Made by a program: the position numbers and the translations under genes. Source: Candidatus Hodarchaeota archaeon (lineage in GTDB: Archaea > Asgardarchaeota > Heimdallarchaeia > Hodarchaeales > Hodarchaeaceae). Taken from it: a DNA stretch of 64,000 nucleotides. Shown here piece by piece: positions 2 to 16,024 of this stretch. Where the stretch lies: contig JAHQWW010000003.1 of assembly GCA_029856365.1 (NCBI GenBank), positions 32,001 to 96,000 of the forward strand, read 5' to 3'. Under the pieces are notes generated by a model, which saw only the letters and a list, made by a program, of their open reading frames with translations, was not told the origin of the DNA and did not search any database. Positions within the stretch are counted from its first letter, which is position 1, and every line of letters starts with the position of its first letter.

Positions 2-481
2 CCTCAAGCATATTATTTTCTTGCTAATGCCATGTTAGATTGGGCAATAAACATCGGAACTAAACAAGTGATTTGTTTGGACGGATTTGTAGCAGATCCT
101 CGTGATGAAAAAACGAATAATGTATTTTTAGTGGCTGAACCTCAGGTCTATAAGGAAAATAAGGAATTAATGCAATTGGATTTTCCCAAACCCCACACTG
201 GTTTTATTTCTGGTCTCTCTGGTGCAATTATGAATGAGGCTCTTCTTACGCAAATTGAAGGCTTTTCACTCCTTGTACCTGTATCCACTCCATATCCCGA
301 CCCGGGAGGAGCTGCTAAACTGATTGATTCACTTAATCAAATAAAAGGTCTCAAGATCGACACTTCTAAGCTCCTTCAGGATGCTGAAAAAATTCAGAAA
401 TCTCTGATGGAATTAGCAGAACGAAATCGTCAGCTATCGCAAGGTGAAGGAATAGAACCTAGTAAAGGCCTTTATGTCTGA
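2..481 (+). CDS. PAC2-family proteasome assembly chaperone (5'-truncated by window edge)
   Basis: Frame is open from position 2. Motifs 'GFISGLSGAIMNEA', 'YPDPGGAAKLI' and 'IDTSKLLQDAEKI'; C-terminus ends in HbYX-like 'LYV'. Confidence 0.85.
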   Translation, partial: PQAYYFLANAMLDWAINIGTKQVICLDGFVADPRDEKTNNVFLVAEPQVYKENKELMQLDFPKPHTGFISGLSGAIMNEALLTQIEGFSLLVPVSTPYPDPGGAAKLIDSLNQIKGLKIDTSKLLQDAEKIQKSLMELAERNRQLSQGEGIEPSKGLYV

Positions 482-498
482 AAAGGATCACATTTGTT

Positions 499-1008
499 TC
501 AGCGATTACTCTGCCACTCAAGAAGACAATCCCAATTATTAAAATAGTTTTTCAGAGATTTTGCCACGGATTTTGAAAGCTTAGAATTTGATTGTTTGTT
601 CAAAATTTGTAGATCAGAGAATGGCAGAGTCACTATCCATTTGTCATTTTTAGTCTTCATTCGATGTTTTTTTGCTATCTGCAAAAAATTTTTCGATTCT
701 AAAATAAAATGATGTTTCTGAAAAGTCTCATCTTCTTCAGGTAAACGTATAGCGAGAATTATGAAACTCTCATTATCCATAAAAAACCCTATTTCAAGCT
801 CCCATATAATGTTGGAACCTTTTTTTAATCCTGTACACACTTTAATATCAGCATAGCGTACGAGACCCCCGTTTTCTGAACGAATGACCATATCTACTTT
901 ACCAGATCCAGCATATGGACTGAATGACTCTACACCCATCTGATATAATTTTAATTGGATATCTAACTCATCTATTCCATCCAGGCTAAATTCTTCATCT
1001 GGATTCAT
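499..1008 (-). CDS. hypothetical protein, possible degenerate PD-(D/E)xK fold
   Basis: 169-aa ORF; 'KVDMVIR...RYADIKVC' resembles the restriction-endonuclease-fold core. Confidence 0.45.
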   Translation of the reverse strand: MNPDEEFSLDGIDELDIQLKLYQMGVESFSPYAGSGKVDMVIRSENGGLVRYADIKVCTGLKKGSNIIWELEIGFFMDNESFIILAIRLPEEDETFQKHHFILESKNFLQIAKKHRMKTKNDKWIVTLPFSDLQILNKQSNSKLSKSVAKSLKNYFNNWDCLLEWQSNR

Positions 1009-1252
1009 TCACATAATGACCCCTAACTGTCCCTTCATATCAAATATTTTAAAATACGTTGCTAAAATATCTTCAATTCAATTTTCAAATACATGTAAAG
1101 CAAATACTTTTGCAAGATTTCTCATTGTTCTGTTTAATAAAAAGTTTTTGAAATTTATTTCAGAAGAGGTAAATATTTCTTGAAAGAAAAATAGTATTCA
1201 ATTCCACTAGAAAATCATTACTAGATAAAGCTCTAGGAAGAAAAATGATCTC

Positions 1253-2254
1253 TTAAGAAGGATTAGAAAACAAAGTTAGTCGTTCATGACACATTGGACA
1301 TTGATTGAATACTTTCAACCATTCCAACAAGTGATTACGATGAAAAGTATGTTGACAGATCGGACACGCAACACTATCATCATCAGACTCTATAGGATAT
1401 CGACAAATTACACAATACTTTTCAGATTGTTTAAATACATCCAAAGGGATGTCACTGATTGTCTCACCTTCATGGCAATCATCTACGGCTAAAATCAATT
1501 CACCGACCCTATTGAGCTCTAATCTCCCGATGATTTCTTCTTGAAACAATATGTGTTCAAGAATACGTTGAAGCAAATGATAATCTACAATTCGATCATG
1601 AACGTGTTTTTTGACTTTGAACATTAAGTAATCAGATTCAATCTCGTTTCGAGGTCGGGACATCTGGGTATTAATAGTATCGAGTATAATTTGCCTCATA
1701 TTTGATAAAAAAACAATATTCTCACGTTTCTTTTTGATTTCATTTAGAGATTGACCTACTAACTTGACAATATCCCTCAGTTCTCTTTGAATGTGCGAAG
1801 TGCTAATAGGAGGGGAGCCTACTGAAATTTCATTTGAAGTTACATTTAATATCTCCTCCATTTCAATGTAAAATTCATCTAATTGTTTTAGAATGGTTTT
1901 AGTGTTATTTAGGGTCTGGAGTGGTTCAATTAATTCAATTTGAGCTATTATTTGTTTCACATCAAAACGACGGGTGACCAAGTCATCTAGGTAACGCGAA
2001 ATCTCTATAAAAAAGGGTTGGCGTAATTTTTTATTCACAATATATGAAAAGAGAATACTTAGTAAGAATCCTGTGATGACAGTAAGCTTTTCAAGATTAG
2101 AAGATAATCCAATTGCACTTAGAACAGATGTTACCCCAATAAATATTACTATTAAGATGATAAAATTCCCAGTTGTTTTATTTCGTGATAACCTAGAGAG
2201 TTTTACAACATTGGTGGCCATTATTACACCAAACAACAGAAAATAACACTTCAA
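1253..2254 (-). CDS. membrane-anchored RING-finger protein (putative E3 ligase)
   Basis: Two N-terminal hydrophobic helices; C-terminal CVIC...CPICQHTFHRNHLLEWL...CPMC. Confidence 0.85.
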   Translation of the reverse strand: MKCYFLLFGVIMATNVVKLSRLSRNKTTGNFIILIVIFIGVTSVLSAIGLSSNLEKLTVITGFLLSILFSYIVNKKLRQPFFIEISRYLDDLVTRRFDVKQIIAQIELIEPLQTLNNTKTILKQLDEFYIEMEEILNVTSNEISVGSPPISTSHIQRELRDIVKLVGQSLNEIKKKRENIVFLSNMRQIILDTINTQMSRPRNEIESDYLMFKVKKHVHDRIVDYHLLQRILEHILFQEEIIGRLELNRVGELILAVDDCHEGETISDIPLDVFKQSEKYCVICRYPIESDDDSVACPICQHTFHRNHLLEWLKVFNQCPMCHERLTLFSNPS

Positions 2255-2324
2255 AACTTTCTGGATTTATTTTATACGAGGATTAATTAAAAACTAGCCT
2301 AGAAAAAGACTCCGCAAAACCTAC

Positions 2325-3290
2325 TCATTCCAGTAAAGCCTGTTCCTTTTTACTATCAGTAAAACACTCATAATAGTCTGATTGAACAATTGAATTTTCA
2401 TAATTTCGATCTATGATTGTATTTGGTAAAACGACACTACTCGTTAATTCTACCCCCTTTTTAACCACAGAGTTGTCTCCTATAATGGAGTTCTTTATGA
2501 CAGCTGATTCATCAATATGGACATTTTTTCCAATTATATTTTCATTAACTCTCCCTTTCTGAATCTTATGAAGAAATTTGAGGTTATAACGCCACAAATC
2601 ATGAGATGTACTGATATGAAAGACTCTCTTCGCAATTAGTCCGCCCACTCGCCCTCCATGACGAATGGTTTTGTTAATTGCTGTAGCTAGTTCATATTCA
2701 CCACGTTTGGTCTTTTCGATGCTTTTTATTATGTTGAAAATTGATTTTGAAAAAATATAAAGAGCTGCTGAATTTAGATCACTCAGTATTTCAGCTGGAG
2801 TTTGTGGTTTTTCTCGAACCTCTAAAACACGGCCATTTCGATAATCAACTGTGGAGGATTCTTTCATTAAGTCAAACTCCATTATTTCAAGAGAAAGAGT
2901 GATGTTATTTCTTTCTTTGATATGTGTTCTACATAATTCCTTTAAGAAAGAAGCTGAAAACAATGAATCCCCTGCTATTACCAGAAAATGTTTGGTTGTT
3001 AGATATTCTTCAACCTGTAAAACCGCATGTGCTGTCCCAAGTGCTTTTTCCTGAGCGATAAAAAGTGTATTGATGTCTGGAAAAGCCATATTAATAAATG
3101 AGGGGATAATCTTGTCATCTTTTTGGATAACAATTCCAATATTTTGAATATCAGCCTTTAAAAGTCGTTCTATTGAGTATTGTAAAATAGGTTTGTTTAA
3201 TAAAGGTAACATCGGTTTAGGAGTGTTGTATGAAAATGGATGCAGTCGTGACCCTACACCTGCAGCCAAAATAAACGCAGAAACAGTCAT
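2325..3290 (-). CDS. sugar-phosphate nucleotidyltransferase with C-terminal hexapeptide repeats
   Basis: 'ILAAGVGSRLHP...PKPMLP', 'LGTAHAV', 'REKP', 'RGEYEL'; left-handed beta-helix tail. Confidence 0.9.
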   Translation of the reverse strand: MTVSAFILAAGVGSRLHPFSYNTPKPMLPLLNKPILQYSIERLLKADIQNIGIVIQKDDKIIPSFINMAFPDINTLFIAQEKALGTAHAVLQVEEYLTTKHFLVIAGDSLFSASFLKELCRTHIKERNNITLSLEIMEFDLMKESSTVDYRNGRVLEVREKPQTPAEILSDLNSAALYIFSKSIFNIIKSIEKTKRGEYELATAINKTIRHGGRVGGLIAKRVFHISTSHDLWRYNLKFLHKIQKGRVNENIIGKNVHIDESAVIKNSIIGDNSVVKKGVELTSSVVLPNTIIDRNYENSIVQSDYYECFTDSKKEQALLE

Positions 3291-3392
3291 TTTTGTCAGA
3301 TCAATTAAATTAACCGTTATTTTTCAATTAATAAAGATTTATAAGTCATTTTGTTAGAATTGTCTCATAATTAATAATCGGGGATTAGTTGC

Positions 3393-4136
3393 ATGGTTCG
3401 TTTAAAAGCTGTTTACCTGATTAAAGAGGAAGGATTTGTAATATATCACCAATCATTTGGTGTAACAGAGCAGGATCAGGATATGGTAGCGTCTTTACTT
3501 ATGGCTTTGAGGAGTTTTGGAAAAGAAGCTTTAGGAGAGGGAGGATCTTTGTCCAAGGTAGACTTTGGAGAAGGGGCAGACATGATTTTAGAAGCGGGTA
3601 ACCGAATAGTTGCAATCGCGGTAGTAGTTCTCGATAAGGAACATAAAGAACGAGAGGAGTATGACATTCGTAAAGACTTATTGAAATTCGTTAGAAAAAT
3701 TGAGGAAAAATACTCAGAAGAGCTGAATGACCCCATTTTTCAAAAGAGTGCTTTTTCTGGAGTTGCAACCCAAATATATCAACATTTTTTCCGTGATAAA
3801 ATGTCTAGGATTCATCAAAACCAATTTGCAAGTATTAATGAGTACTTGAAATATCCCACAACCCTATTATTTGAAATCACTCCTCGGGGAGGTAAGCTCT
3901 ATCAATTTTATAGAGAATTTCCAAAATTCACTGAATTAATCGGAGATATCCAGAAAGAAGAATTTGATAAATTAATTGACAGTATGCAAGACAAGAATAG
4001 CATGGTTTCATTTAAAGATTGCCTTGATCTCTTTGGTGAACAGAAGATGGATCAGATTCTTGAAATATTCAAATTTTTGACAAATCGTGGAATGTTTGAA
4101 GCATATAATTTTGAACGAATAGCAATTGAGTCATAA
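3393..4136 (+). CDS. longin-like domain protein with C-terminal winged-helix-like region
   Basis: 'VYLIKEEGFVIYHQSF...DMVASLLMALRSFGKE...LSKVDFG' is the Asgard longin pattern; ends 'ILEIFKFLTNRGMF'. Confidence 0.7.
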   Translation: MVRLKAVYLIKEEGFVIYHQSFGVTEQDQDMVASLLMALRSFGKEALGEGGSLSKVDFGEGADMILEAGNRIVAIAVVVLDKEHKEREEYDIRKDLLKFVRKIEEKYSEELNDPIFQKSAFSGVATQIYQHFFRDKMSRIHQNQFASINEYLKYPTTLLFEITPRGGKLYQFYREFPKFTELIGDIQKEEFDKLIDSMQDKNSMVSFKDCLDLFGEQKMDQILEIFKFLTNRGMFEAYNFERIAIES

Positions 4137-4160
4137 TTAGTATTCATTCTAGAAATGAAC

Positions 4161-5015
4161 CTAGCATGTAACATCTTTCCCGCAATGAGGACATTTAATA
4201 GTTTTTTCCCTCTGGGTTCGTACAATAAATGCAGTCATCTTTCTCATTTCTTTTTGCATTGTATTGAGTTCAGTTATAATTCTCGTTTCAATACTGGTGT
4301 TAATTTGCTGATTCATCACCTCAGGAAGAGTAGAAATATTTTTAGTCAACTGTTCGGCTGCTAGTACTAATCTTTGAAGAGTTCCATCCTGTTTAGCCAA
4401 ACGTTCTGTCACAGATGTCTTTAATTCGTTGACGGATGACTCTAAGTAAATAGAGATACGATCACGCAGTGATGTCAATTCTACTTGGATTATTGCATTC
4501 ACTCGATCTCTAAGTTCAGCAACAGTGGTTAATTGATCAGTCTGATTCTCAATTAGGGCATTTAGATTACTTACAACGTTATCAAGTTTGTCTGAAATCA
4601 CTACGAAATTATTAATACTAGCTTCGAATCGGCCCTTGGTTTCTTCAGTAGATGAGTCTACCATTGTGGTGATATCATTGGATAACCTCCGCATACTCCC
4701 AACAACATCTTCCACGTAGCTAACTTTAATAAATTTCAGATCGTTCTTTGTTTCTTCAGCAGTTGTCACGAATGTCTTTTGAAAAGACCCAATGGATTCC
4801 TCAAGGTTAGAAATTACTGTAGGAAGGTTTTGGATTGAAACCTGTAAATCAGAACTGATTTTTGAAGTGTCAACTATTTGCTGGATCGTAATAAGCTTTT
4901 CATCAATACCATTTGTAAGTTGGAGGAGGTATTGTAATTCTGAGGGATCTTTAATGGTCTGTTTTAATTCCAATATCAGTTGCAATATCTCTTTAATGTC
5001 ATCTTCTAAGCCCAT
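4161..5015 (-). CDS. long coiled-coil protein with C-terminal zinc knuckle (CPHCG)
   Basis: Heptad-rich 284 aa; ends 'IKCPHCGKDVTC'; SD-like GAGG upstream. Confidence 0.7.
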   Translation of the reverse strand: MGLEDDIKEILQLILELKQTIKDPSELQYLLQLTNGIDEKLITIQQIVDTSKISSDLQVSIQNLPTVISNLEESIGSFQKTFVTTAEETKNDLKFIKVSYVEDVVGSMRRLSNDITTMVDSSTEETKGRFEASINNFVVISDKLDNVVSNLNALIENQTDQLTTVAELRDRVNAIIQVELTSLRDRISIYLESSVNELKTSVTERLAKQDGTLQRLVLAAEQLTKNISTLPEVMNQQINTSIETRIITELNTMQKEMRKMTAFIVRTQREKTIKCPHCGKDVTC

Positions 5016-5183
5016 ACTATTTCCTCACATCTTTTCACTATTGTTGAGTAATAAACTCAAAGATTCTAAAAGATTTTCGAAGCTTCAAGACTCCAGCAGT
5101 TAAAATTCTAATCTTTTATTAGGGTTAATTAAAGATGCCTAGTAAATGTCTTTGAATCTTATTACAATGTTCAGGGAAACAGG

Positions 5184-6269
5184 TTATTTCAAGCGTCTTA
5201 AAAACGTCACAAACTTGTCATTTTCTAACATTGTGTTATTTAATCGATTGATCATAATAATCGTTTCAGAGTAAATGAATTGCTTGAAATCATTCTCTGT
5301 GGCATTTTGTAAGTCTAGATAAATCTCTTTCACAACAGAAAATGAAATATTAGGTATTCTAGATTCTAGATCTCCTGTTCCGAGATTATAATTCTTTAAA
5401 ATACTGGAGGAGACACGAAGAGAGTCTTGCAGCTTTCGATTATCACCAGAGTACTCTGAAATACTCAGATAATAATTCTTTACAATATCTTGGACTTGTT
5501 CTTGTTCCAAAGATGTAAGACTTAATTCATCTTCACTAGGAAACAATCGACGGAGGTTTTGGAGTAAGCGTGCGGCGGGGGCTTCTCGTAAGAGCTTACC
5601 AATAAGATTCTTTAACTCAAAAGATGGAATCTGAATAATTTCACGTGGATTAGGGAGAGAAGATTCTGATTGAAGCTCGTAACGATGTAGCTCTTTACAT
5701 GCAGCAAAATAGTAATTAGGAAAACCCAAGTGAGACAAATTCGAATATGAGGAAAATAATTTGTCAATAGTCTCAACGATTCCCCATTTGTCCAGATATT
5801 CAGTATTTCGTAGAAATAGACCTATTTTTTCCTCTAGAGGCTTTGTTGTTTGAGGCATTCCTGAAGCTTCTGTTGGTGTTGAAATAGTAGAGTGTGCACC
5901 TAGTAATGAAGAAACTTCCAAATCGATTTTTTCTATTTTTTCTAGAATTTCCAAACCTGATTCCGGTTGTAAACGCATTTTAGAAAGAAATTCCTGGACC
6001 ATGGTTAATGTTTCAATTACATCATCATTTAGGCCATCCTCACTCCTTAAAGTTGTAACTAGTGTTGAAAGAAGCTTAATGAGTAAGAGATTCAAACCAA
6101 TGAGGAGATTGATCTTCTCCCCCATGTTACCTCGTGAAGTCCAAAAATTAAATGAGGGATACTTCTGTTTATCTTTATCAGGTGCCAAGTTCGATTGATT
6201 TCTAAGAAGTTCGTTAGAATCAGGTGAGTCTCGTGTAGATTCGAACCTTGGGTGATCATTTTCGTCCAA
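5184..6269 (-). CDS. hypothetical all-helical protein, 14 bp downstream of tubulin-family gene
   Basis: 361-aa ORF with tight spacing. Confidence 0.7.
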   Translation of the reverse strand: MDENDHPRFESTRDSPDSNELLRNQSNLAPDKDKQKYPSFNFWTSRGNMGEKINLLIGLNLLLIKLLSTLVTTLRSEDGLNDDVIETLTMVQEFLSKMRLQPESGLEILEKIEKIDLEVSSLLGAHSTISTPTEASGMPQTTKPLEEKIGLFLRNTEYLDKWGIVETIDKLFSSYSNLSHLGFPNYYFAACKELHRYELQSESSLPNPREIIQIPSFELKNLIGKLLREAPAARLLQNLRRLFPSEDELSLTSLEQEQVQDIVKNYYLSISEYSGDNRKLQDSLRVSSSILKNYNLGTGDLESRIPNISFSVVKEIYLDLQNATENDFKQFIYSETIIMINRLNNTMLENDKFVTFLRRLK

Positions 6270-6283
6270 CTTAATCCAGCACC

Positions 6284-7648
6284 TTATTCTGGTTTGATGT
6301 AGTAACCAAATAACTTCTCCAAATCATTAACCGCTGCATCTAATTCTTTCCTTGTTGTTCCTTTTGATCGTTTAAACCAATGTTGTTTCAATTCCGAGTC
6401 ACCACTATGAAGATTGATGAGTGCTTTGGCCTCCTCAAGAATATCATATAATTCTGGTATTTTTGGCAAACCAAATAATAGAAGGAGCGAGGCTCGTGTG
6501 GTATCATCATCATAGGCACAGTAAGTTGGAGAAATACTTGCACCCTTAGCTAAAAATGGTGTCAATGCCTTTTTCAAAAGTGGATCATACTCCACTCGTG
6601 CAATATTACGGGGACCACTGAGTACAGAGAAAACAGATGAAGCAGCAGGATTTGTTCCCATATTTGTCAAGCTACAGTTAGAAAGAGTGTATTCAACTGC
6701 AGTGGATAGTTGAGAGTCCATTCCTCCAATTTCTGGAAAAACGGATAAATCGTCAAACATTGCTGGTACAACAACGCTATCCAATTTCAATGCAAAGTCA
6801 CCAATATCGGTAGTAGGTAATACTTCCTTTCCGATTTCAGGTACTCCAGGAGACAACATTTCAGCAATCGATTCTAAAGCTAGAGGGTTGATTAGTTCAA
6901 CAAAAGCCTCTTCTATCTGAGCTGGATAAGCTGTTCCGTCTTGGCCGATAACAGTTGGAACACTGGAACTAACCTGCTCACTACTTAAATCAGCTAAATT
7001 CCTTCCGATTTGTCTACTCAATAAATCAACAGATTCCCCACGTTGCCAACTTAAAACCCGTTCAAGCATTGTTCTATTAGAAAGAAGAAGGATAAGATCT
7101 GGCCCCATGTTTCCTTCCTCTAGTTGGAGTCGCAATAATCTTGATAACGCCCAGACGCTATTAATCGCTTCAGAAGACTGGTTAACGAATGGTAAGACCC
7201 CAAAAACATAAATAAAAATTTTACGTTTCTCCTCTTCAGCAAAACGGTTTCTTAACAATCGTATTAAAGCAGGAGTTCCACCACATCCAGTACCTCCTCC
7301 AAAACTGGTAAAAATACAAAAACCACTGATTCCCTCGTAACCAAGCCCTTGTAACTGATTTAGTACAATATCCTGAGAATTCATAACTGCTTCATAACCC
7401 GCAGAAAATTTTCCACCTACTCCAATCTCTGCATCTGAATAAAGAAGTGTTCTCTTCTTGGAAATGGAATACTTCTTTCGTGCTTTTAACAAATCACCAC
7501 GATCAGTATTCATCACTAGATATTCTCTGATGCGCTGAGGTAACTCACCTTTTTTTGATTTGGCTAAATAACTACCTACTAAATTTGACCCACACTCACC
7601 AATACCGATTGCGAAGATTTCTGACTCTGTTCCTCCTTCAATTGACAT
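6284..7648 (-). CDS. tubulin/FtsZ superfamily GTPase (tubulin/CetZ-like)
   Basis: T1 'GIGECGSNL', 'NTD', signature 'GGGTGCG', 'VLPF', 'LLSN', T7-like 'TTDIGDF', C-terminal helices with HWF. Confidence 0.92.
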   Translation of the reverse strand: MSIEGGTESEIFAIGIGECGSNLVGSYLAKSKKGELPQRIREYLVMNTDRGDLLKARKKYSISKKRTLLYSDAEIGVGGKFSAGYEAVMNSQDIVLNQLQGLGYEGISGFCIFTSFGGGTGCGGTPALIRLLRNRFAEEEKRKIFIYVFGVLPFVNQSSEAINSVWALSRLLRLQLEEGNMGPDLILLLSNRTMLERVLSWQRGESVDLLSRQIGRNLADLSSEQVSSSVPTVIGQDGTAYPAQIEEAFVELINPLALESIAEMLSPGVPEIGKEVLPTTDIGDFALKLDSVVVPAMFDDLSVFPEIGGMDSQLSTAVEYTLSNCSLTNMGTNPAASSVFSVLSGPRNIARVEYDPLLKKALTPFLAKGASISPTYCAYDDDTTRASLLLLFGLPKIPELYDILEEAKALINLHSGDSELKQHWFKRSKGTTRKELDAAVNDLEKLFGYYIKPE

Positions 7649-7699
7649 TTCAACACGCTCTATTTGTATTATTTATCTATATATTCATTATTATATTGG

Positions 7700-10600
7700 C
7701 TATTTTTCCAGTTTAATACCAGATTTGATTTCAATAAGTAATTTCATTACTAGAGATAAGTACGATCGAATAACCTTATTATGAGGATATGTTTCTCTGA
7801 TTTTCTTAGATATTTCTTTATACTGTCGTGAGTTCTCCTCTCTGCTCTCCGTTGGGGTGTACCGAGGACGGAACATACGAATAGCATGATGCCAATGGTT
7901 CAATTGCACTGAAACCTTTTTCCATTCTTTTCTTTGTTCATCTATTAGTGGTATTAACTCCAGAATATATCTAAGATCATGAGAATCTAAGAATTCCTCA
8001 CGAGCTTTTACTAATTTAGATAAAGGAAAAATATTCTCAGACGCTTCCTCTGTATATCTCTTGAATACTTCCTGAATGTTAGAGTAATATTCTAAATTCC
8101 CCAACTCAATCTGTAGAGCAGCATTTCGATCTTTTTCAATTTTCTTCATGATTTCAATGACGGTCCCTCGTACTGAAACTAGTTCAAGTATTGCTTGTGT
8201 TAAGCGGCTAATGTGATTTGTTGTAGCAATTTCTTGAAATTGACTCAGATATGCAAGATCAACTCGTTCGTCTTGCCGTAAGTCAATTTGGTAATGATTA
8301 AATAAATATTCAACCGCATCTTGAATTTCAGTAATATAGCGTTTTCCCATGGATCTAATTTCACGACAAGCTTTTGTATCAGTTTGCAAGCGATCAATTT
8401 CAACAAAAACGTCAGTTATTTCCAGTAATTGGACATCTTCTTGATTTTTAACTATTACTTGGCTAAATGTTTCGATATATCCCCCGACATACTCGATAAT
8501 ATTGATCCCAACTTCTTTCAAATCATTAACATTTTTCAGAACCTTTCGTGATTCCTTTACACCATGTGCTAACAGAACAGCGACGATTTCTGTGTCATAC
8601 AAAAAAATTAGCTGCCGTAATTTGTGTGCTAACCGCTCATGGGACACTTCCTCGGCTTCAAAATCTGCAATTTTTTTCTCAGCACCAAAAACCCGATCAT
8701 CAAGCGGTGTTATTTCATTTATCCGTGGAAGACTGAGTCTTAGCCAATTGTAGAGATTTTGGTGAAGTGTAGCTAAGGAATCTTTCGCCATTTGCAAACT
8801 TTCCAAGCTATAACTTTCAAAAACGTTGACTAATCTGATAATATCCTTGTGAGTTTTAATCTCAGCCATTTTCTCGTTCATAAGTTTCAGGGTTTCTTCA
8901 AAAAAGATTGTATACTGGCTAGGAAGTTTAGAATAGTCCTGTATATGAGAGGATATTTCCCGTTCCATTTGTTCAGCCAATGTGGAAGCTTTTCGTTCAA
9001 CAAAAGCTCTTAATTGCCAAAATTCGGTTAAAGCTTCAGAATAATCAAGGTCATCAATTTCTCTATCAGTAGAATAGATTAAACTGCTTTTTCGAGATTT
9101 TAATAGCCTAAAAAGTCTTCTATCGACTCCCTCGAGATTTGTTATCTGCTTTTTTAATTCAATAAGAATTTCATTTTTATTTTCTTCAATCGTTTCAAGG
9201 AAAGAAATGTATTCTTTAATTACAGCCTCAATATTTCCTGATTCTGAATATTCATCAATTAAATCCACGATTTTACTGCGTTTTTCTCGTAGGTCAAATC
9301 GTGTCTCTATAGGAATTAATGGAAATGGAATCGACTTTAAATTCTCACGGATCCGTGAGGAAATCTTGTACTTCCAAACTGGAATCTTTTCATACTCATC
9401 TAAAAGCTCTTGGGTACTTTTTTGGGCAACAGCACTAGCCTCATCTCGGAATGATTTCAAATCGTCAACTGCAAGAATTGGAACATGAACCTTTAATTTA
9501 GGGGGAATTGTTTCTAGATTTATCAGTTGATTATAAATCGGATGTATTTCATTATCTATTTTATTCCAAAGTTCAGTTTTAATATTTGTATTAAGTCTAT
9601 GAAGTCTTTCGATTTCATGAACTAAGTCACGAATATCTATTTCTTCCACAATTTTATGTTTTCTTTGATATTCGATTTGATCTTTTAGGTCTTCAGATAG
9701 AATATCCCGTAAACTTTCACGTGAATCATAGAGATTCAACAAATTTTGTCTGAGACTTTGTTGAGCTGGTTTAGAAAAATAAGCAACCAGTCGAGTCTCC
9801 CAATCCTTTATTTCTCGAGCCTTACTACTTAATTCACTGGGTGATAAAGCCTCAAAATCGCGAATAATCGGTATTTGAGGCCCCTCACTTAAATTTATAA
9901 CTTCTTGGATGTGAGGATTTTCTAGTAATCTGAAGAAATAGTTTTGACACTCTTCAGCTAGAGCTGACTTCAATTCGTGATATCTTTTTGCGAGTTCTAC
10001 CCATTCCTGAAGGTCTCTTGTTTTCGCTGCCTCTTTTTCAATTGCTCGTATATCCTTAGTGAAATCAGATGGAACTGGTATCTTCATTGCACGAATAGCT
10101 TTAGAAGCGTTTATTAGTTCTGATGTACTGATCAGCTTCTTTGTAACAATAATTTGTTGTTGACGCCAAGAACGGATTTTCTCAATATCTTGGATTATAG
10201 TGGGTATATTTGTAGATGAAACATCTGTTTCTGGAACTGGTGAAAAAGAAGATTCCAGTCCTTCTCTTCCTGTAATCTGTATAATACGTCCGATTTGATC
10301 CTCAGTTTCTGTTTTTAATGAAATTTCATAAGTTCTTAGAGCATTTACGAATTCATTACTCAATGAATTCAATCTCTTTTCCAATGTGATGAGAGTTTCT
10401 ACTGAAGTTGTTTTTTCCGTACTGGCTTGAATATCTTGTATTTCCTCCTTCAGTACATCAATTTTTGCCCAAAGATCCAAACCAATTGAGGCTACTGTAT
10501 CGATATGTTGTTGTAACTCAGAAGACATTTGAATTATTGCCAGTTGGATTTTACCTTCTGTACCTTTTCTGCGCTGCTTTAAATATGCGTTTTCCGCTTC

Positions 10601-11218
10601 CAACTGACTATAGACTTCTAGTAAATCAGGAATAGTCATCACATGAATGCTTGTTTTTGTTGTTTGATTCGTTATTCGAATCTTTTCTTCATCAAAATTA
10701 ACAAATTTTCCATAAAGTTCGATAATCTCTCGATTAAACAATAATATAGATACATTTTTTCCTCTTAGAACCTCTGAAATCTGATTATAGGTTCTAAGCA
10801 CATTTGAACTAAATTTCACAATCTCTTTGATGTTAAAACTGGGAATTTGTAGTTTACGAATGGTTTCTGTCTCTTGGGGGATAAATTTGGCAATTTCTTT
10901 GATGTTATTTGCCAAGTCAAAGTAAATCTTACGATATCCAACTAAAAGGGTATTTAGTAAATCCTCAGATAATTTACCAAATTTCTCTTTATTTTGAGTA
11001 AGGGATCTTTTCATTCCCCTCTTTTTAAAGAATCCTGCTGTAGGCAAGTCTTTTTCCAATTTTTCGATTTCTATCACTAATTTTTGTGCTTCGTTTAAAG
11101 TGGAGACAGCTTGCACTGTTGGGTCAATTGATCGTAATTCAGTCACTAAATCTCGAATCTTATGAAGAACTTCCTTTGAAAGGAGTTCTCCTGCTTCCGA
11201 TGTCATATTGGCTGGCAT
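7700..11218 (-). CDS. 1172-aa helical-repeat / coiled-coil protein
   Basis: Almost entirely amphipathic helices with recurring units; no NTPase motif seen. Confidence 0.8.
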   Translation of the reverse strand: MPANMTSEAGELLSKEVLHKIRDLVTELRSIDPTVQAVSTLNEAQKLVIEIEKLEKDLPTAGFFKKRGMKRSLTQNKEKFGKLSEDLLNTLLVGYRKIYFDLANNIKEIAKFIPQETETIRKLQIPSFNIKEIVKFSSNVLRTYNQISEVLRGKNVSILLFNREIIELYGKFVNFDEEKIRITNQTTKTSIHVMTIPDLLEVYSQLEAENAYLKQRRKGTEGKIQLAIIQMSSELQQHIDTVASIGLDLWAKIDVLKEEIQDIQASTEKTTSVETLITLEKRLNSLSNEFVNALRTYEISLKTETEDQIGRIIQITGREGLESSFSPVPETDVSSTNIPTIIQDIEKIRSWRQQQIIVTKKLISTSELINASKAIRAMKIPVPSDFTKDIRAIEKEAAKTRDLQEWVELAKRYHELKSALAEECQNYFFRLLENPHIQEVINLSEGPQIPIIRDFEALSPSELSSKAREIKDWETRLVAYFSKPAQQSLRQNLLNLYDSRESLRDILSEDLKDQIEYQRKHKIVEEIDIRDLVHEIERLHRLNTNIKTELWNKIDNEIHPIYNQLINLETIPPKLKVHVPILAVDDLKSFRDEASAVAQKSTQELLDEYEKIPVWKYKISSRIRENLKSIPFPLIPIETRFDLREKRSKIVDLIDEYSESGNIEAVIKEYISFLETIEENKNEILIELKKQITNLEGVDRRLFRLLKSRKSSLIYSTDREIDDLDYSEALTEFWQLRAFVERKASTLAEQMEREISSHIQDYSKLPSQYTIFFEETLKLMNEKMAEIKTHKDIIRLVNVFESYSLESLQMAKDSLATLHQNLYNWLRLSLPRINEITPLDDRVFGAEKKIADFEAEEVSHERLAHKLRQLIFLYDTEIVAVLLAHGVKESRKVLKNVNDLKEVGINIIEYVGGYIETFSQVIVKNQEDVQLLEITDVFVEIDRLQTDTKACREIRSMGKRYITEIQDAVEYLFNHYQIDLRQDERVDLAYLSQFQEIATTNHISRLTQAILELVSVRGTVIEIMKKIEKDRNAALQIELGNLEYYSNIQEVFKRYTEEASENIFPLSKLVKAREEFLDSHDLRYILELIPLIDEQRKEWKKVSVQLNHWHHAIRMFRPRYTPTESREENSRQYKEISKKIRETYPHNKVIRSYLSLVMKLLIEIKSGIKLEK

Positions 11219-11516: not shown

Positions 11517-12338
11517 TTGAAGGTTGAAAGATTGCTGAACGCATTGTTAATCTCAATAGGAAATGAGTTACTATCAGGTAAAACTATCAATACAAATGCG
11601 ACTTATCTTGCGAAAAATCTTACAAATTTAGGATTTGTCGTAAAAAAAATCATTACTGTTCCTGATGATCCAGAAATTGTACCAATCGAGATTTCTCACG
11701 CACTCTTATCGAATGATTACCGAATTATTCTTATAACGGGAGGTTTAGGTCCGACTTGGGATGACTCAACAGCATTCTTTCTATCAAAAGCACTAGGTGT
11801 TGACACAGAACTTAACGCTAAAGCTTTATCAATAGTTACACAACGCTACCAAGTTTTATTCAATAAAAAACTGGTAGAAACGTCTGAAATTACCCCAGCA
11901 CGAAAAAAAATGGCAATTCTACCAGTAAACGCTGATCCTATTGATAATCCTGTTGGGACTGCCCCTGGAATCTTTTTTAACCATAAAGACTCAAATACAT
12001 GGATTTTCTGTCTTCCTGGGGTACCTCGGGAAATGAAGGCAATGTATCTTTTAATTGAGTCCGAAATTATGGCTTTAATAAAAGAGAAACATATGAGTTA
12101 CTATGAAACAGAATTTACATCATCGTTCACAGATGAATCTTTACTTGCCCCGTTTTTAATACGAGTGCGTCAAAAGTATGATGTGTGGATAAAATCACTT
12201 CCAGAAGCTTATCAAGAGGAAAAAAATATTCGCTTAATTATATCAAAATCAGCAGACTCAGAGGTGGATGCGAAGAAAGAAGTTATGGATGCAAAAGCAT
12301 ACCTCCAAAAATTATTAGATTTATCACATAATTCCTAG
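11517..12338 (+). CDS. cinA: CinA-like molybdopterin-binding-domain protein
   Basis: 'IGNELLSGKTINTN', 'TGGLGPTWDD', 'NPVGTAPG', 'LPGVPREM'. Confidence 0.9.
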   Translation: MKVERLLNALLISIGNELLSGKTINTNATYLAKNLTNLGFVVKKIITVPDDPEIVPIEISHALLSNDYRIILITGGLGPTWDDSTAFFLSKALGVDTELNAKALSIVTQRYQVLFNKKLVETSEITPARKKMAILPVNADPIDNPVGTAPGIFFNHKDSNTWIFCLPGVPREMKAMYLLIESEIMALIKEKHMSYYETEFTSSFTDESLLAPFLIRVRQKYDVWIKSLPEAYQEEKNIRLIISKSADSEVDAKKEVMDAKAYLQKLLDLSHNS

Positions 12339-12586: not shown

Positions 12587-14893
12587 ATGAGCGACGATAA
12601 TGATTCAAAATTACTACTACTAAAAGTTGCAGAGGCGAACCAGGGGGACGTGGGACGAGGATTGGTTCGCATAGATTATTCCATCATGCGGGAAAATGGA
12701 TTAGAAACAGGAGATATAATTGAAATCTCTAGTGAGAGAGCTAATGGAAGAAAAACAGGTGCCTTGGTCATACCTGGAAGACGAGAAGATCGGGGGAAAA
12801 ATATCATCAGGATGGATGGGTTAATCAGAGGGAATGTGGGGACAAGTTTAGGTGAAACTGTTCGAATTCGGCAAATCAAAAAACGAGAAGCAAATCGTAT
12901 CACTATAGCACCTGCAGAAGAACGTATTAGGCTTTTAGTTAGATCAGAAATTATTCGTGAACGTTTACAGAATCATCCAGTCTCACGTGGTGATTTACTG
13001 GTTATAACGGGGCAAATCCGTAAGATTCCTCCCTCTGGAGGATCCAGTGGAACAGGAATGGATGATTTCATCTCTCGTTTCTTCGGCGCATCAAGTCCCG
13101 TATCTTTGGGTGAGATTAAAGTTGTGGTCGTTGCAACGGACCCAGAAGGCATTGTTACGGTAGGAGATACAACAGAAGTCAATATTGTTGAAGAAGCTCC
13201 TAAGGATCTTCGAATGATGCCACGAGTGACATACGAGGATATTGGTGGCCTATCGGAGGAAATTAAGCGTGTGAGAGAGATGATCGAGCTTCCGATGAAA
13301 CATCCCGAACTCTTTGAAAGGTTAGGGATCGATCCTCCAAAAGGTGTCTTATTACATGGACCTCCAGGTACAGGAAAAACATTACTTGCCAAAGCTGTTG
13401 CAAATGAATCAGGAGTTAATTTCGTATCAATTGCTGGGCCCGAAATTATGTCAAAATTTTATGGAGAGAGTGAACAACGAATTCGTGAGATTTTTGAACA
13501 AGCTGAGAAAGACGCCCCAAGTATTATTTTTATAGATGAATTAGATTCAATCGCAGTAAAAAGGGAAGAAGTCACTGGAGAAGTAGAAAGACGAGTTGTT
13601 GCTCAATTGTTGGCCTTGATGGATGGTTTAAAGAGTCGTGGTAAAGTTATAGTTATTGGGGCAACGAACCGGCCTAATGCACTCGATCCTGCCTTGCGAA
13701 GACCTGGACGATTTGACAGAGAAATTGAAATTGGGGTTCCAGATAGAAATGGGCGTTATGAAGTCTTGTTGGTTCATACAAGAGGAATGCCTATTGATGA
13801 AGATGTCGATTTAGAAGAATATGCTGCTAAAACACATGGTTTTGTTGGAGCAGACATCGCTGCTCTTACAAAAGAAGCTGCAATGCATACTCTTCGAAAA
13901 GTTTTACCAAAAATTGATTTTGATAAACCTCTCACGCCAGAAATTCTTTCAAAATTAGTTGTCTCGAAAGAAAATTTCGATGAAGCACTTAAAATTACAG
14001 AGCCCTCAGCTATGCGCGAAGTACTGTTGGAGATTCCAAATATTCACTGGAAAGATATTGGGGGTCTTGAAGGGGTGAAACAACAACTTATTGAAGCTGT
14101 AGAATGGCCCATTATTTATCCTGAGATGTTTAAGCGCCATGGTATTACCCCTCCCCATGGTATTCTTCTTTATGGTCCACCTGGGACTGGAAAGACCCTC
14201 TTAGCCAAAGCTGTTGCTACTGAAAGCCAAGCAAATTTCATAGCAATTCGTGGGCCTGAGTTTCTGTCAAAATGGGTTGGTGAAAGTGAAAAAGCTGTTC
14301 GTGAAGTTTTTAGGAAAGCTAAACAAGCATCTCCTTCTATTATATTTTTAGACGAGCTTGATGCCATTGCTCCTCGCCGAGGAGTATTTGCTGGTGGTAG
14401 CCACGTCACGGAGAGTGTTGTGAACCAAATATTATCATTACTAGATGGTTTAGAGAATCTTCGTGATGTTGTTGTACTAGGTGCAAGTAATCGACCAGAT
14501 ATGATCGACCCAGCTCTCCTCAGACCAGGGAGGTTTGATCGATTATTATTGGTGAAGCCTCCTGATACTGAATCTCGAGAAAAAATCCTACAGATTCATA
14601 CAAATGCAATGAGGCTGGCGTTGGATGTCAACATTTCCCAACTTGCTAGTGACTTAGATGGATATGTAGGTGCAGATATAGCTGCAATTTGCCGTGAAGC
14701 TGTTATGATTGCACTCCGTGAAGATTTAAACACGGAATTAATAGAAAAACGTCATTTTTTTGAAGCAAAAAAAGCCATTCATCCCAGCATTAGTGATAAG
14801 ATTATCAAAGAATTTGAAGAATTAGAACGTAAGCTTTTAGGGAAATCGGAAATTGGACGGAAAGATGTATTAGGATTGAAAGATTATCTCTGA
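12587..14893 (+). CDS. cdc48: Cdc48/VCP-family AAA+ ATPase
   Basis: N-domain plus two AAA modules (GPPGTGKT twice, FIDELD/FLDELD, RPGRFDR twice). Confidence 0.98.
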
Positions 14894-15073: not shown

Positions 15074-16024
15074 TCACTTGGTATTATCTGCAGATCGAAT
15101 TATTGGTTTATAAATGTCTAAAGGCCACTGTTTCTCCATCAATTTCAGAAGCACACGTGAGTCAAATTGATCAATCTCAATCGAAGCTGATGCTGTTTTC
15201 ATTAATCGTTCAGCTATCAATTTTGATCGTACGACGGAATCGGAGTACCCTATTATGAGTCCAATCACTAAAGGATGATTTTTCACTATAACAAGCTGAA
15301 GATCGGAAGCTGTTATTACTTCCATTCCAGTTGGATTCTTTGATAATTCTTTCACTGTTTCACTAATACCCAAATTTAGCTGATCCAGGATAGGACGTTC
15401 TATATTTATGAATTTCGTAGTATAGATCTGATGTGTTTCGAGATCAATTAAAATTACTACTCGTACTTTACATTTGAATGTGGATTCAACTCCAGCCAAT
15501 ATATCGGCTATCCAGTCAAATGCATCATAAAAATTCTCACCAGTCTTTGCTGATACCCGAAATAAGCCTACAGGTCTATCTGATCTTTGCGCGCGAGGTA
15601 AATCAAGATCCTGTACAATTAGATCAAAAGCTCGAGCCCCCTCTAAGTCAATTTTATTAGCAATGAAGAGAACAGGGGCTTTCTCGTTTCTCTGAATGGA
15701 ATCCCAGAAAGCCTCTGATGCTTCTGTGATACGAATATCAGCACTATCAAGTACAAAAACGATTGCTGACGCTTTTTCTAGAGAATCATGCCATAAAAGG
15801 TTACGGTATATCTCTTGTCCACCTAAATCAACCAAATTGAACTCAATTTGACGATATCTCACGGTTCGATAGTTGACACCGAGGGTTCGTGTTGTAGGTA
15901 CAAATTCTGAACGTAAAAGTCTATTAACGATTGTGGTTTTACCAGCGCCGTCGAGACCAATAATGGTAATCTCATATTTCTCGACCTTTTTTCCTTTGAA
16001 AATTCTTCGCAATATACTCGACAC
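15074..16024 (-). CDS. Arf-like small GTPase fused to C-terminal roadblock/longin-like domain
   Basis: N-terminal amphipathic helix; G1 GLDGAGKTT, G3 DLGGQ, G4 NKID, G5 SAK; about 140-aa alpha/beta extension. Confidence 0.88.
   Translation of the reverse strand: MSSILRRIFKGKKVEKYEITIIGLDGAGKTTIVNRLLRSEFVPTTRTLGVNYRTVRYRQIEFNLVDLGGQEIYRNLLWHDSLEKASAIVFVLDSADIRITEASEAFWDSIQRNEKAPVLFIANKIDLEGARAFDLIVQDLDLPRAQRSDRPVGLFRVSAKTGENFYDAFDWIADILAGVESTFKCKVRVVILIDLETHQIYTTKFINIERPILDQLNLGISETVKELSKNPTGMEVITASDLQLVIVKNHPLVIGLIIGYSDSVVRSKLIAERLMKTASASIEIDQFDSRVLLKLMEKQWPLDIYKPIIRSADNTK

Follow-up and report, generated by a model that had tools for sequence, protein, structure and literature searches.

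Introduction

Among the tubulin/FtsZ superfamily proteins of Asgard archaea, Asg.Tub was named in 2023 by Santana-Molina, del Saz-Navarro and Devos as a CetZ-like, Asgard-only paralogue between CetZ and the tubulins; its place in the superfamily tree is unstable, its C-terminus has no match, its function was not given, and the genes around it are unknown ones that contain coiled-coil regions (PMC9871819). No fixed trio, co-duplication, giant repeats or predicted complex is described in that work. Here we analyse a locus of four co-oriented genes around a GTPase of this kind, located in 64,000 nucleotides of Candidatus Hodarchaeota DNA (the window: positions 32001-96000 of contig JAHQWW010000003.1, from an assembly of 4.24 megabases (Mb) that is 84% complete). 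Gene 1 codes for a giant helical protein, gene 2 for the GTPase and gene 3 for a smaller helical protein; gene 4 follows at a distance. The closest named relatives of the genome are Hodarchaeales metagenome-assembled genomes (MAGs), such as Ca. Hodarchaeum mangrovi and B3_Heim.

CetZ proteins, which are tubulin-like and act in archaeal cell shape, are the best solved relatives of the Asg.Tub GTPase domain, and motifs T1-T4 are common to both. In contrast, the C-terminal halves show no detectable similarity, and Asg.Tub has an additional variable insertion past its GTPase domain. CetZ genes lie among pili, cofactor and sugar genes (PMC9856176), and CetZ, unlike Asg.Tub, is without a giant partner of helical build. 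BtubA/B with BtubC and the Asgard AtubA/B are encoded in small operons that combine a tubulin-family polymer with a dedicated helical stabiliser, BtubC (PMC9871819, PMC13394414). They are bona fide tubulin heterodimers, whereas a single CetZ-like GTPase is present here, and its partners are unrelated to BtubC, with no TPR or other Pfam match.

None of the papers searched was found to describe the trio of genes 1-3; the GTPase family itself is published and uncharacterised. We find that the giant, Asg.Tub and gene 3 are a real module, on the grounds of gene order, phyletic pattern, congruent trees, co-duplication and a complex prediction. It is probably an Asgard-specific cytoskeletal module of three proteins, in which a GTP-driven Asg.Tub filament would operate with two dedicated adaptors. 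Documented in this work are the co-duplicated pair, the repeat build of the giant, the family-level co-occurrence counts and a controlled three-chain prediction with its interface residues. A preliminary description of the locus had proposed a dedicated system of all four genes: this is well supported for genes 1-3 and not supported for gene 4.

Genes 1-3 are conserved as a module

We read about 120 related loci: 44 by open reading frame (ORF) calling and phmmer, from 8 Asgard families, and 80 more in named MAGs. The order of genes 1-3 and their tight or overlapping junctions are kept in about 110 of the 120. Throughout the 44 loci a giant of 870-1400 amino acids (aa) is followed by a GTPase of 440-475 aa and a gene 3 protein of 293-392 aa, all co-oriented; in nearly all of them the giant/GTPase junction measures -29 to +53 base pairs (bp) and the GTPase/gene 3 junction -35 to +44 bp. 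The 80 named-MAG loci (Hodarchaeales, Thorarchaeota, Sifarchaeum, Borrarchaeum and others) have the same order with a handful of exceptions, and nearly all loci have a giant homologue immediately upstream of the GTPase. The conserved neighbourhood anticipated in the preliminary description is thus found, for genes 1-3, across 8 Asgard families.

The three genes also share their distribution. Among 250 Asgard genomes the GTPase is found in 95, the gene 3 profile matches 95 (one copy each, beside the GTPase in all but few) and the giant profile 97; the few mismatches in these counts occur in fragmented assemblies. The trio is present in 8 of 28 families, and none of its genes was found in the other 20, which include families of 26 and 10 genomes from the window's own class and one of 54 genomes. 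Where present, it is found in most or all genomes of a family: 15-16 of 16 in f1, 52-53 of 59 in f10, 15-16 of 19 in f16, 4 of 4 in both f18 and f19, and the single genome in each of f9, f12 and f27.

That the gene order is merely conserved, while the products are linked neither physically nor functionally, is very improbable. The support for a complex is indeed a structure prediction and not proof. However, the order is kept across families at about 20-57% identity to the window's proteins while the surrounding genes change, the phyletic patterns of the trio are identical, the giant and the GTPase have been duplicated together, and the complex prediction passed its controls.

Small dedicated operons with tubulin-superfamily GTPases move the replicons of Bacillus plasmids and phages. 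The TubZ-TubR-tubC system of this type comprises a DNA-binding adaptor (TubR) and centromere repeats, and a comparable DNA-partition or mobile-element function would suit the patchy distribution of the trio across the phylum. We consider it highly improbable here. The trees of the giant, the GTPase and gene 3 are congruent at group level and track the hosts, with one clade per host group; each genome has a single copy, carried on contigs of chromosome size (up to 4.9 Mb). No DNA-binding family was found in the partners or in 34 gene 3 and 37 giant relatives (centromere repeats were not searched for), and no integrase or plasmid genes lie alongside, the neighbours being Cdc48, a molybdopterin-binding-domain gene and a nucleotidyl transferase. 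PADLOC returned nothing beyond a weak coiled-coil match of gene 4. Vertical inheritance, chromosomal contexts and the lack of DNA-binding or defence matches thus argue against a partition or mobile system and against mere synteny alike.

A few loci depart from the common layout. In the subclade containing B3_Heim, a 1202-aa ORF that has no Pfam family and is not related to the giant stands between giant and GTPase (L013, 10655-14263; also L058), and inserts of 563 and 773 aa occupy the same place in L015 and L059. The giant is about 10 kilobases (kb) from the GTPase in genome G183. In one Thorarchaeial genome (G037, contig C69, 11298-21918) about 8 kb separate gene 3 from the GTPase, a distance suggestive of an insertion within the module. 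An intact gene 3 is seemingly missing from L073 and L103. The Thorarchaeial loci (L021-L032, L064-L119) have a conserved, divergent WD40-like gene of about 650 aa upstream of the trio and, downstream, a co-oriented 468-aa gene of CoA-binding/succinyl-CoA-ligase type.

The giant and the GTPase were duplicated together

Another such pair is present in the window's genome, on contig C12, where a giant of 1141 aa immediately precedes a GTPase of 444 aa. Its giant shares 24% identity with that of the window over the full length (E 3e-66), and its GTPase 54% with Asg.Tub of the window. This second pair occurs in 7 of the 17 genomes searched in the genus, the window's included. In both trees, the two copies and an LC_3-type sequence make up one Hodarchaeales clade with support of 98-99, so the giant and the GTPase were duplicated as a unit inside Hodarchaeales.

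The second pair is without gene 3. Ahead of it lies a conserved 311-aa gene in the same orientation, which has no family and was ruled out as a relative of gene 3 or gene 4 (BLAST; hhalign probability 0.1). At this locus (L004, G000:C12, within 49-8088) the giant spans 1055-4480 and the GTPase 4493-5827; next comes, in convergent orientation, a 735-aa protein whose G domain is of Gtr1/RagA type. The layout of 311-aa gene, pair and 735-aa gene is repeated in L017, L020, L115, L120, L122 and L123.

Gene 2 is a CetZ-like GTPase

Gene 2 matches PF00091 with 64.5 bits against a Pfam cut-off of 33. A profile of 33 family members has as its best solved relatives CetZ1 (4b46, 1e-13), CetZ (3zid, 7e-9) and CetZ2 (4b45, 8e-8). 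These three structures carry the deposited names 'cell division protein FtsZ' or 'tubulin/FtsZ GTPase', and no chain named as bona fide FtsZ is among the best 60 PDB matches. Weaker matches are beta-tubulin (5e-7) and OdinTubulin (5e-6), then gamma-tubulin, BtubA/B and AtubA; the tubulin, Odin and Atub chains, at 5e-7 to 8e-5, stay behind CetZ and align over the GTPase domain only. All PDB alignments of the profile are confined to that domain, residues about 12-190, and the C-terminal half alone has no match to a solved tubulin, FtsZ or CetZ with E up to 10.

Pfam gives gene 2 neither an FtsZ_C (PF12327) nor a Tubulin_C match, and the ftsZ equivalog TIGR00065 reaches 31.9 bits against a cut-off of 295. 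The real FtsZ of the genome lies on contig C36, with both PF00091 and FtsZ_C domains present. By its sequence, then, gene 2 is CetZ-like and not a true tubulin; the 'tubulin' of the preliminary description has to be renamed, its GTPase domain being nearest to CetZ and its C-terminal half unmatched. It fits the Asg.Tub group, an identity that we infer from the published description of that group. Homologues at least 50% identical occur in Hodarchaeales, Thor and other Asgard MAGs, and all named homologues come from Asgard MAGs.

The nucleotide-binding motifs, read over 33-43 sequences, are intact. G15, G17, E18, G20 and N22 of T1 (GIGECGSN) are invariant, and C19 is kept in at least 90%; N47, T48 and D52 of T2 and G76, G78 and G79 of T3 are invariant as well. 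T4 is an invariant GGGTGCG at 117-123, with an unusual Cys in the Ser/Thr place of GGGTG(S/T)G. Invariant residues also mark T5 (P153, F154, Q157, S159 and E160) and T6 (N191, just past the PF00091 span). Residues 222-245 are indel-rich and poorly conserved, and are wholly gone in the paralogous copies (L004, L017, L018, L020); being variable and deleted in paralogues, the segment is a dispensable loop insertion.

P278, D281 and D284 are invariant in all members and T280 is kept in at least 90%, and the T7 loop is most likely P-T-T-D281-x-x-D284. Two results speak against this placement. When aligned with Asgard FtsZ by hhalign, NLDFAD of FtsZ is paired with Asg.Tub residues 217-222, a site that adjoins the segment deleted in paralogues, and the C-terminal half alone aligns to nothing, whether compared with Asgard FtsZ by hhalign or with the PDB. 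The window's own Asg.Tub has Asn at 217 (window 6998-7000), where at least 90% of the family have Asp in a (V/I)-D-I-A-D motif.

A predicted complex of the three proteins

We predicted the three chains in one job with family alignments supplied, comprising residues 855-1172 of the giant, residues 146-361 of gene 3 and the whole GTPase as scored partner. The score was 0.76 and the best of 3 controls 0.38; the score mark is reached by 58 of 80 solved complexes and 2 of 110 mismatched pairs, rates that apply only roughly to three chains with their own alignments. At least 76% of contacts are shared between runs, and the partner predicted local distance difference test (pLDDT) is at least 78. With the GTPase swapped for unrelated proteins the score fell to 0.00 and 0.00. 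When the giant C-terminal domain was swapped, 0.38 remained; most of the confidence therefore lies with the contact between giant and GTPase.

The giant C-terminal domain and gene 3 are predicted to dock on two separate faces of the GTPase. Giant residues 1047, 1108-1118, 1139-1150 and 1161-1165 would contact GTPase residues 300-324, and gene 3 residues 230-234, 294-311, 358 and 361 would contact 63-74, 93-102 and 200-208. The first of these surfaces would correspond to the S7-H9 loop and H9, the M-loop position of tubulin, and 93-102 to H3; both would be lateral.

Both partner surfaces are more conserved than the segments they belong to: 0.55 against 0.43 for the giant (permutation p about 0.0025) and 0.69 against 0.49 for gene 3 (p<1e-4). 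The predicted interface of the giant holds W1109, with H1110 adjacent; that of gene 3 holds the invariant P231, G297, R304 and K361, with the invariant E302 beside it. D208, 97% conserved elsewhere in the GTPases, is Ala in the paralogues that stand without gene 3. The paralogous GTPase shows no clear specific divergence at the predicted gene 3 face (0.50 vs 0.54 overall).

Several points weigh against this arrangement. The gene 3 interface alone reached only 0.38, without a control of its own; the GTPase side of the interfaces is not more conserved than average (0.60 vs 0.67); the prediction program uses alignments, which makes the agreement of interface and conservation not fully independent; and the lateral mapping comes from secondary-structure assignment and not from coordinates. 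Of the interactions that the preliminary description envisaged between the partners and the 'tubulin', that of the giant C-terminal domain is thus supported over its controls and that of gene 3 more weakly.

A putative filament with two adaptors

Because the nucleotide-binding motifs and the invariant D-x-x-D loop are kept, Asg.Tub most likely polymerises in a GTP-dependent, head-to-tail manner, as CetZ, FtsZ and tubulin do. If the mapping is right, the partners would occupy its two lateral sides, one at the S7-H9 'M-loop' and the other at H3, with the longitudinal faces left uncovered. Gene 3 would clad the filament. The repeat rod of the giant, with its unique N-terminal domain, would project outward and tether or cross-link the filament to a membrane, another filament or cargo. 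Gene 4 would be a later, genus-specific neighbour. The more specific roles of bundling, anchoring or nucleating, suggested for the partners in the preliminary description, are not supported: nothing that we found separates these options.

Two considerations count against a filament with adaptors. Translational coupling suggests near-equal amounts of the proteins, which fits a stoichiometric complex at least as well, and it is from sequence features that we infer polymerisation. The main rival, which we consider rather unlikely, is accordingly a stoichiometric GTPase complex that forms no filament, such as a switch or an assembly or capping factor, with Asg.Tub as a regulated monomer or dimer. 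Tight or overlapping junctions suggest equal dosage of the trio, each partner is predicted to make direct contact with the GTPase through a single domain, and the residues touched by gene 3 at 200-208 and immediately ahead of the T3 loop could come near the nucleotide-side longitudinal face; the ambiguous placement of T7, with N217 of the window's Asg.Tub where most of the family have Asp, points the same way. On the other hand, nucleotide motifs and D-x-x-D are kept together across 8 families, a pattern that within this superfamily usually accompanies polymerisation-activated hydrolysis.

An analogy from the side of assembly factors is gamma-tubulin with its GCP proteins, which are large and helical and hold gamma-tubulin through their C-terminal domains; the giant, too, is a large all-helical protein that would hold a tubulin-family GTPase by its C-terminal domain. 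Yet none of 37 giants has a GCP Pfam match, no GCP is among the fold matches of the giant, and no sequence or fold likeness to GCP proteins was found (the C-terminal domain was not searched alone). The window's genome also lacks a true tubulin to nucleate, having three PF00091 matches only.

As a bolder form of the adaptor-bound filament, to which we give a small chance, a composite filament or lattice is conceivable. Lateral contacts between tubulins would here be replaced by gene 3 on the H3 face and by the giant C-terminal domain on the M-loop-equivalent face, and the number of giant repeats (about 170 aa each) would set the spacing or reach. If true, Hodarchaeales, Thorarchaeia and related Asgard lineages would possess a cytoskeletal architecture not seen before.

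With two dedicated partner families that lack known relatives, the module is a tubulin-superfamily system in its own right; about a third of the sampled Asgard genomes, Hodarchaeales and Thorarchaeia among them, have kept it intact. If it is a filament with built-in adaptors, as we favour, partner-dependent cytoskeletons of tubulin type would have arisen in Asgard archaea independently of microtubules. The module supplies concrete proteins and interface residues, and the predicted contacts, the paralogous pair and the variation in repeat number make it testable.

The giant is an all-helical repeat protein with unique ends

The AlphaFold2 model of the giant is all-helical (pLDDT 83, predicted template modelling score 0.40). 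The protein has no Pfam, NCBIfam or PADLOC family, and 37 giants scanned against Pfam gave scattered sub-threshold matches only. It consists of unique ends and internal repeats of about 160-190 aa, which are helical units. When segments of the family alignment are compared by hhalign, residues 130-320 match 320-480 with a probability of 93% (E 2.5e-7) and 660-850 with 88%, while 320-480 matches 660-850 with 79% and 480-660 with 73%. Residues 1-130 show no repeat relation to other giant segments by the same method.

Conservation is uneven along the chain. The N-terminal region is conserved across families, with the invariant P126 and N162 at or just past its C-terminal edge. At 390-660 conservation dips, and the middle differs between lineages; together with the wide range of lengths given above, this fits a variable number of repeats. 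Near the C-terminus W1109 is invariant, and H1110, I1140 and Y1153/L1154 beside it are invariant or nearly so.

In a Foldseek search the best match of the giant model has an E of 0.024 (dynein tail, WAVE Nap1; template modelling score at most 0.1), and a fold search retrieved generic three-helix bundles only, with Z up to 11.4 over 60-80 residues. A word-index search with the giant profile returned close Hodarchaeales relatives only. EzrA/spectrin-type rods and MAP65/PRC1, whose partners are FtsZ or microtubules, are alike in outline, being long rods of helical-bundle repeats with a filament-binding end, and PRC1 is among the fold matches at E 0.8. The repeat of the giant is longer than the about 106 aa of spectrin, however, and there is no sequence, Pfam or specific fold match.

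Gene 3 is a helical protein with a conserved C-terminal domain

Gene 3 is modelled by AlphaFold2 with a pLDDT of 78 and is all-helical except for two very short strands; with this exception, the all-helical character ascribed earlier to the partners is borne out by the models of genes 1 and 3. A three-helix bundle (46-130) is followed by a helical C-terminal domain (150-361, pLDDT mostly >90). With the whole model, Foldseek found no match in the PDB (best E 0.73). A fold search matched the N-terminal bundle alone, at a generic level, with Z up to 8.3 (Vta1, MIT-like and designed bundles); the C-terminal domain is barely probed by such whole-model searches.

Among 34 gene 3 proteins, Pfam gave scattered sub-threshold matches only. 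The family alignment has conserved motifs EAPxARLLQ, WGGPxLEKR and a terminal MKP, and the gene 3 profile finds only 53 relatives among 1.84 billion representative proteins. One of these is a 602-aa form that is itself part of the same trio. In locus L128, from another Hodarchaeales lineage, gene 3 (6001-7809) has an N-terminal extension of about 285 aa, for a total of 602 aa; the extension has no family match, and the giant of that locus is 1311 aa long.

The partners had been described as free of transmembrane segments, which needs a qualification. The first helix of gene 3 (residues 53-75, window 6044-6112) has a Kyte-Doolittle value of 2.06, within a genus range of 1.7-2.25, a hydrophobicity sufficient for a membrane helix; Thor and other lineages score lower, at 1.0-1.6. 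The helix is preceded by F-x-F-W-T-S-R-G in this genus.

Gene 4 is a genus-specific neighbour

A homologue of gene 4 is present in each of the 16 genomes that represent the window's genus. Its family matches are weak and of coiled-coil type only: Apolipoprotein (Pfam/NCBIfam) and ZorA (PADLOC). The gap between gene 3 and gene 4 exceeds 100 bp in all loci, whereas the junctions of genes 1-2 and 2-3 mostly fall between -35 and +53 bp; the spacer in the window leaves room for a separate gene 4 promoter.

One could imagine a four-component system in this genus, with the gene 4 product as an integral partner that bridges or oligomerises via its CxxC tail. It would account for the constant position of gene 4, co-oriented downstream of gene 3 in all genus loci that reach that far, even where an insertion splits giant and GTPase (L013, L015). 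We regard it as improbable. Outside the genus, one query gave just two marginal matches (E about 1e-4 and 1e-3) in 233 other genomes, and within the genus synteny extends just as well to the remaining flanking genes. The spacer ahead of gene 4 is AT-rich as well as long, and the paralogous pair and all other lineages are without the gene. The tail itself (CPHC...C), read earlier as a zinc knuckle, is present in the window and otherwise in the closest relative only (L008). Membership of gene 4 in the module is not supported, and the preliminary description, which counted it in, is to be corrected on this point.

Locus layout

Genes 1-4 lie on the minus strand, and ORF calling reproduced exactly the intergenic gaps of 51, 14 and 168 bp noted before (Table 1). 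A GGTG Shine-Dalgarno-like site accompanies gene 3, whose start is 14 bp past gene 2. Genes 1, 3 and 4 have no Pfam or NCBIfam family above cut-off, in agreement with their first description as uncharacterised. Of the usual FtsZ neighbours, which had been noted as absent, no SepF (PF04472) was found anywhere in the 84%-complete assembly.

Table 1. Features of the locus, in window coordinates.
Feature	Position	Strand	Basis
Gene 1, giant all-helical protein, 1172 aa, first of the module	7700..11218	-	ORF
Gene 2, Asg.Tub, CetZ-like tubulin/FtsZ-superfamily GTPase, 454 aa	6284..7648	-	ORF and PF00091
Gene 3, ~350-aa helical partner family, 361 aa here, TTG start	5184..6269	-	ORF
Gene 4, 284 aa	4161..5015	-	ORF
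Giant, unique N-terminal region, about residues 1-130	10829..11218	-	
Giant, internal repeat region, about residues 130-850	8669..10831	-	hhalign of own segments
Giant, C-terminal domain, about residues 1000-1172, predicted GTPase docking	7703..8221	-	
Asg.Tub GTPase domain, residues 10-171	7136..7621	-	PF00091 span, intact nucleotide-binding motifs
Asg.Tub variable insertion, about residues 222-245, after the GTPase domain	6914..6985	-	
Asg.Tub candidate T7 (catalytic) loop, T-T-D281-x-x-D284-F	6794..6814	-	conservation
Gene 3, C-terminal helical domain, residues 146-361, predicted GTPase contact	5187..5834	-	
168-bp AT-rich spacer between gene 3 and gene 4, with GTGAGG Shine-Dalgarno-like site	5016..5183	-	

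Upstream of the module are a molybdopterin-binding-domain gene (PF00994, window 11517-12338, plus strand), a Cdc48-type double AAA ATPase (12587-14893, plus strand) and a 316-aa Arf-family GTPase with a C-terminal extension (15074-16024, minus strand). A PF00994 gene also lies directly upstream of the giant in the distant Hodarchaeales locus L128, and an Arf-like GTPase is found near the LC_3 locus (L006).

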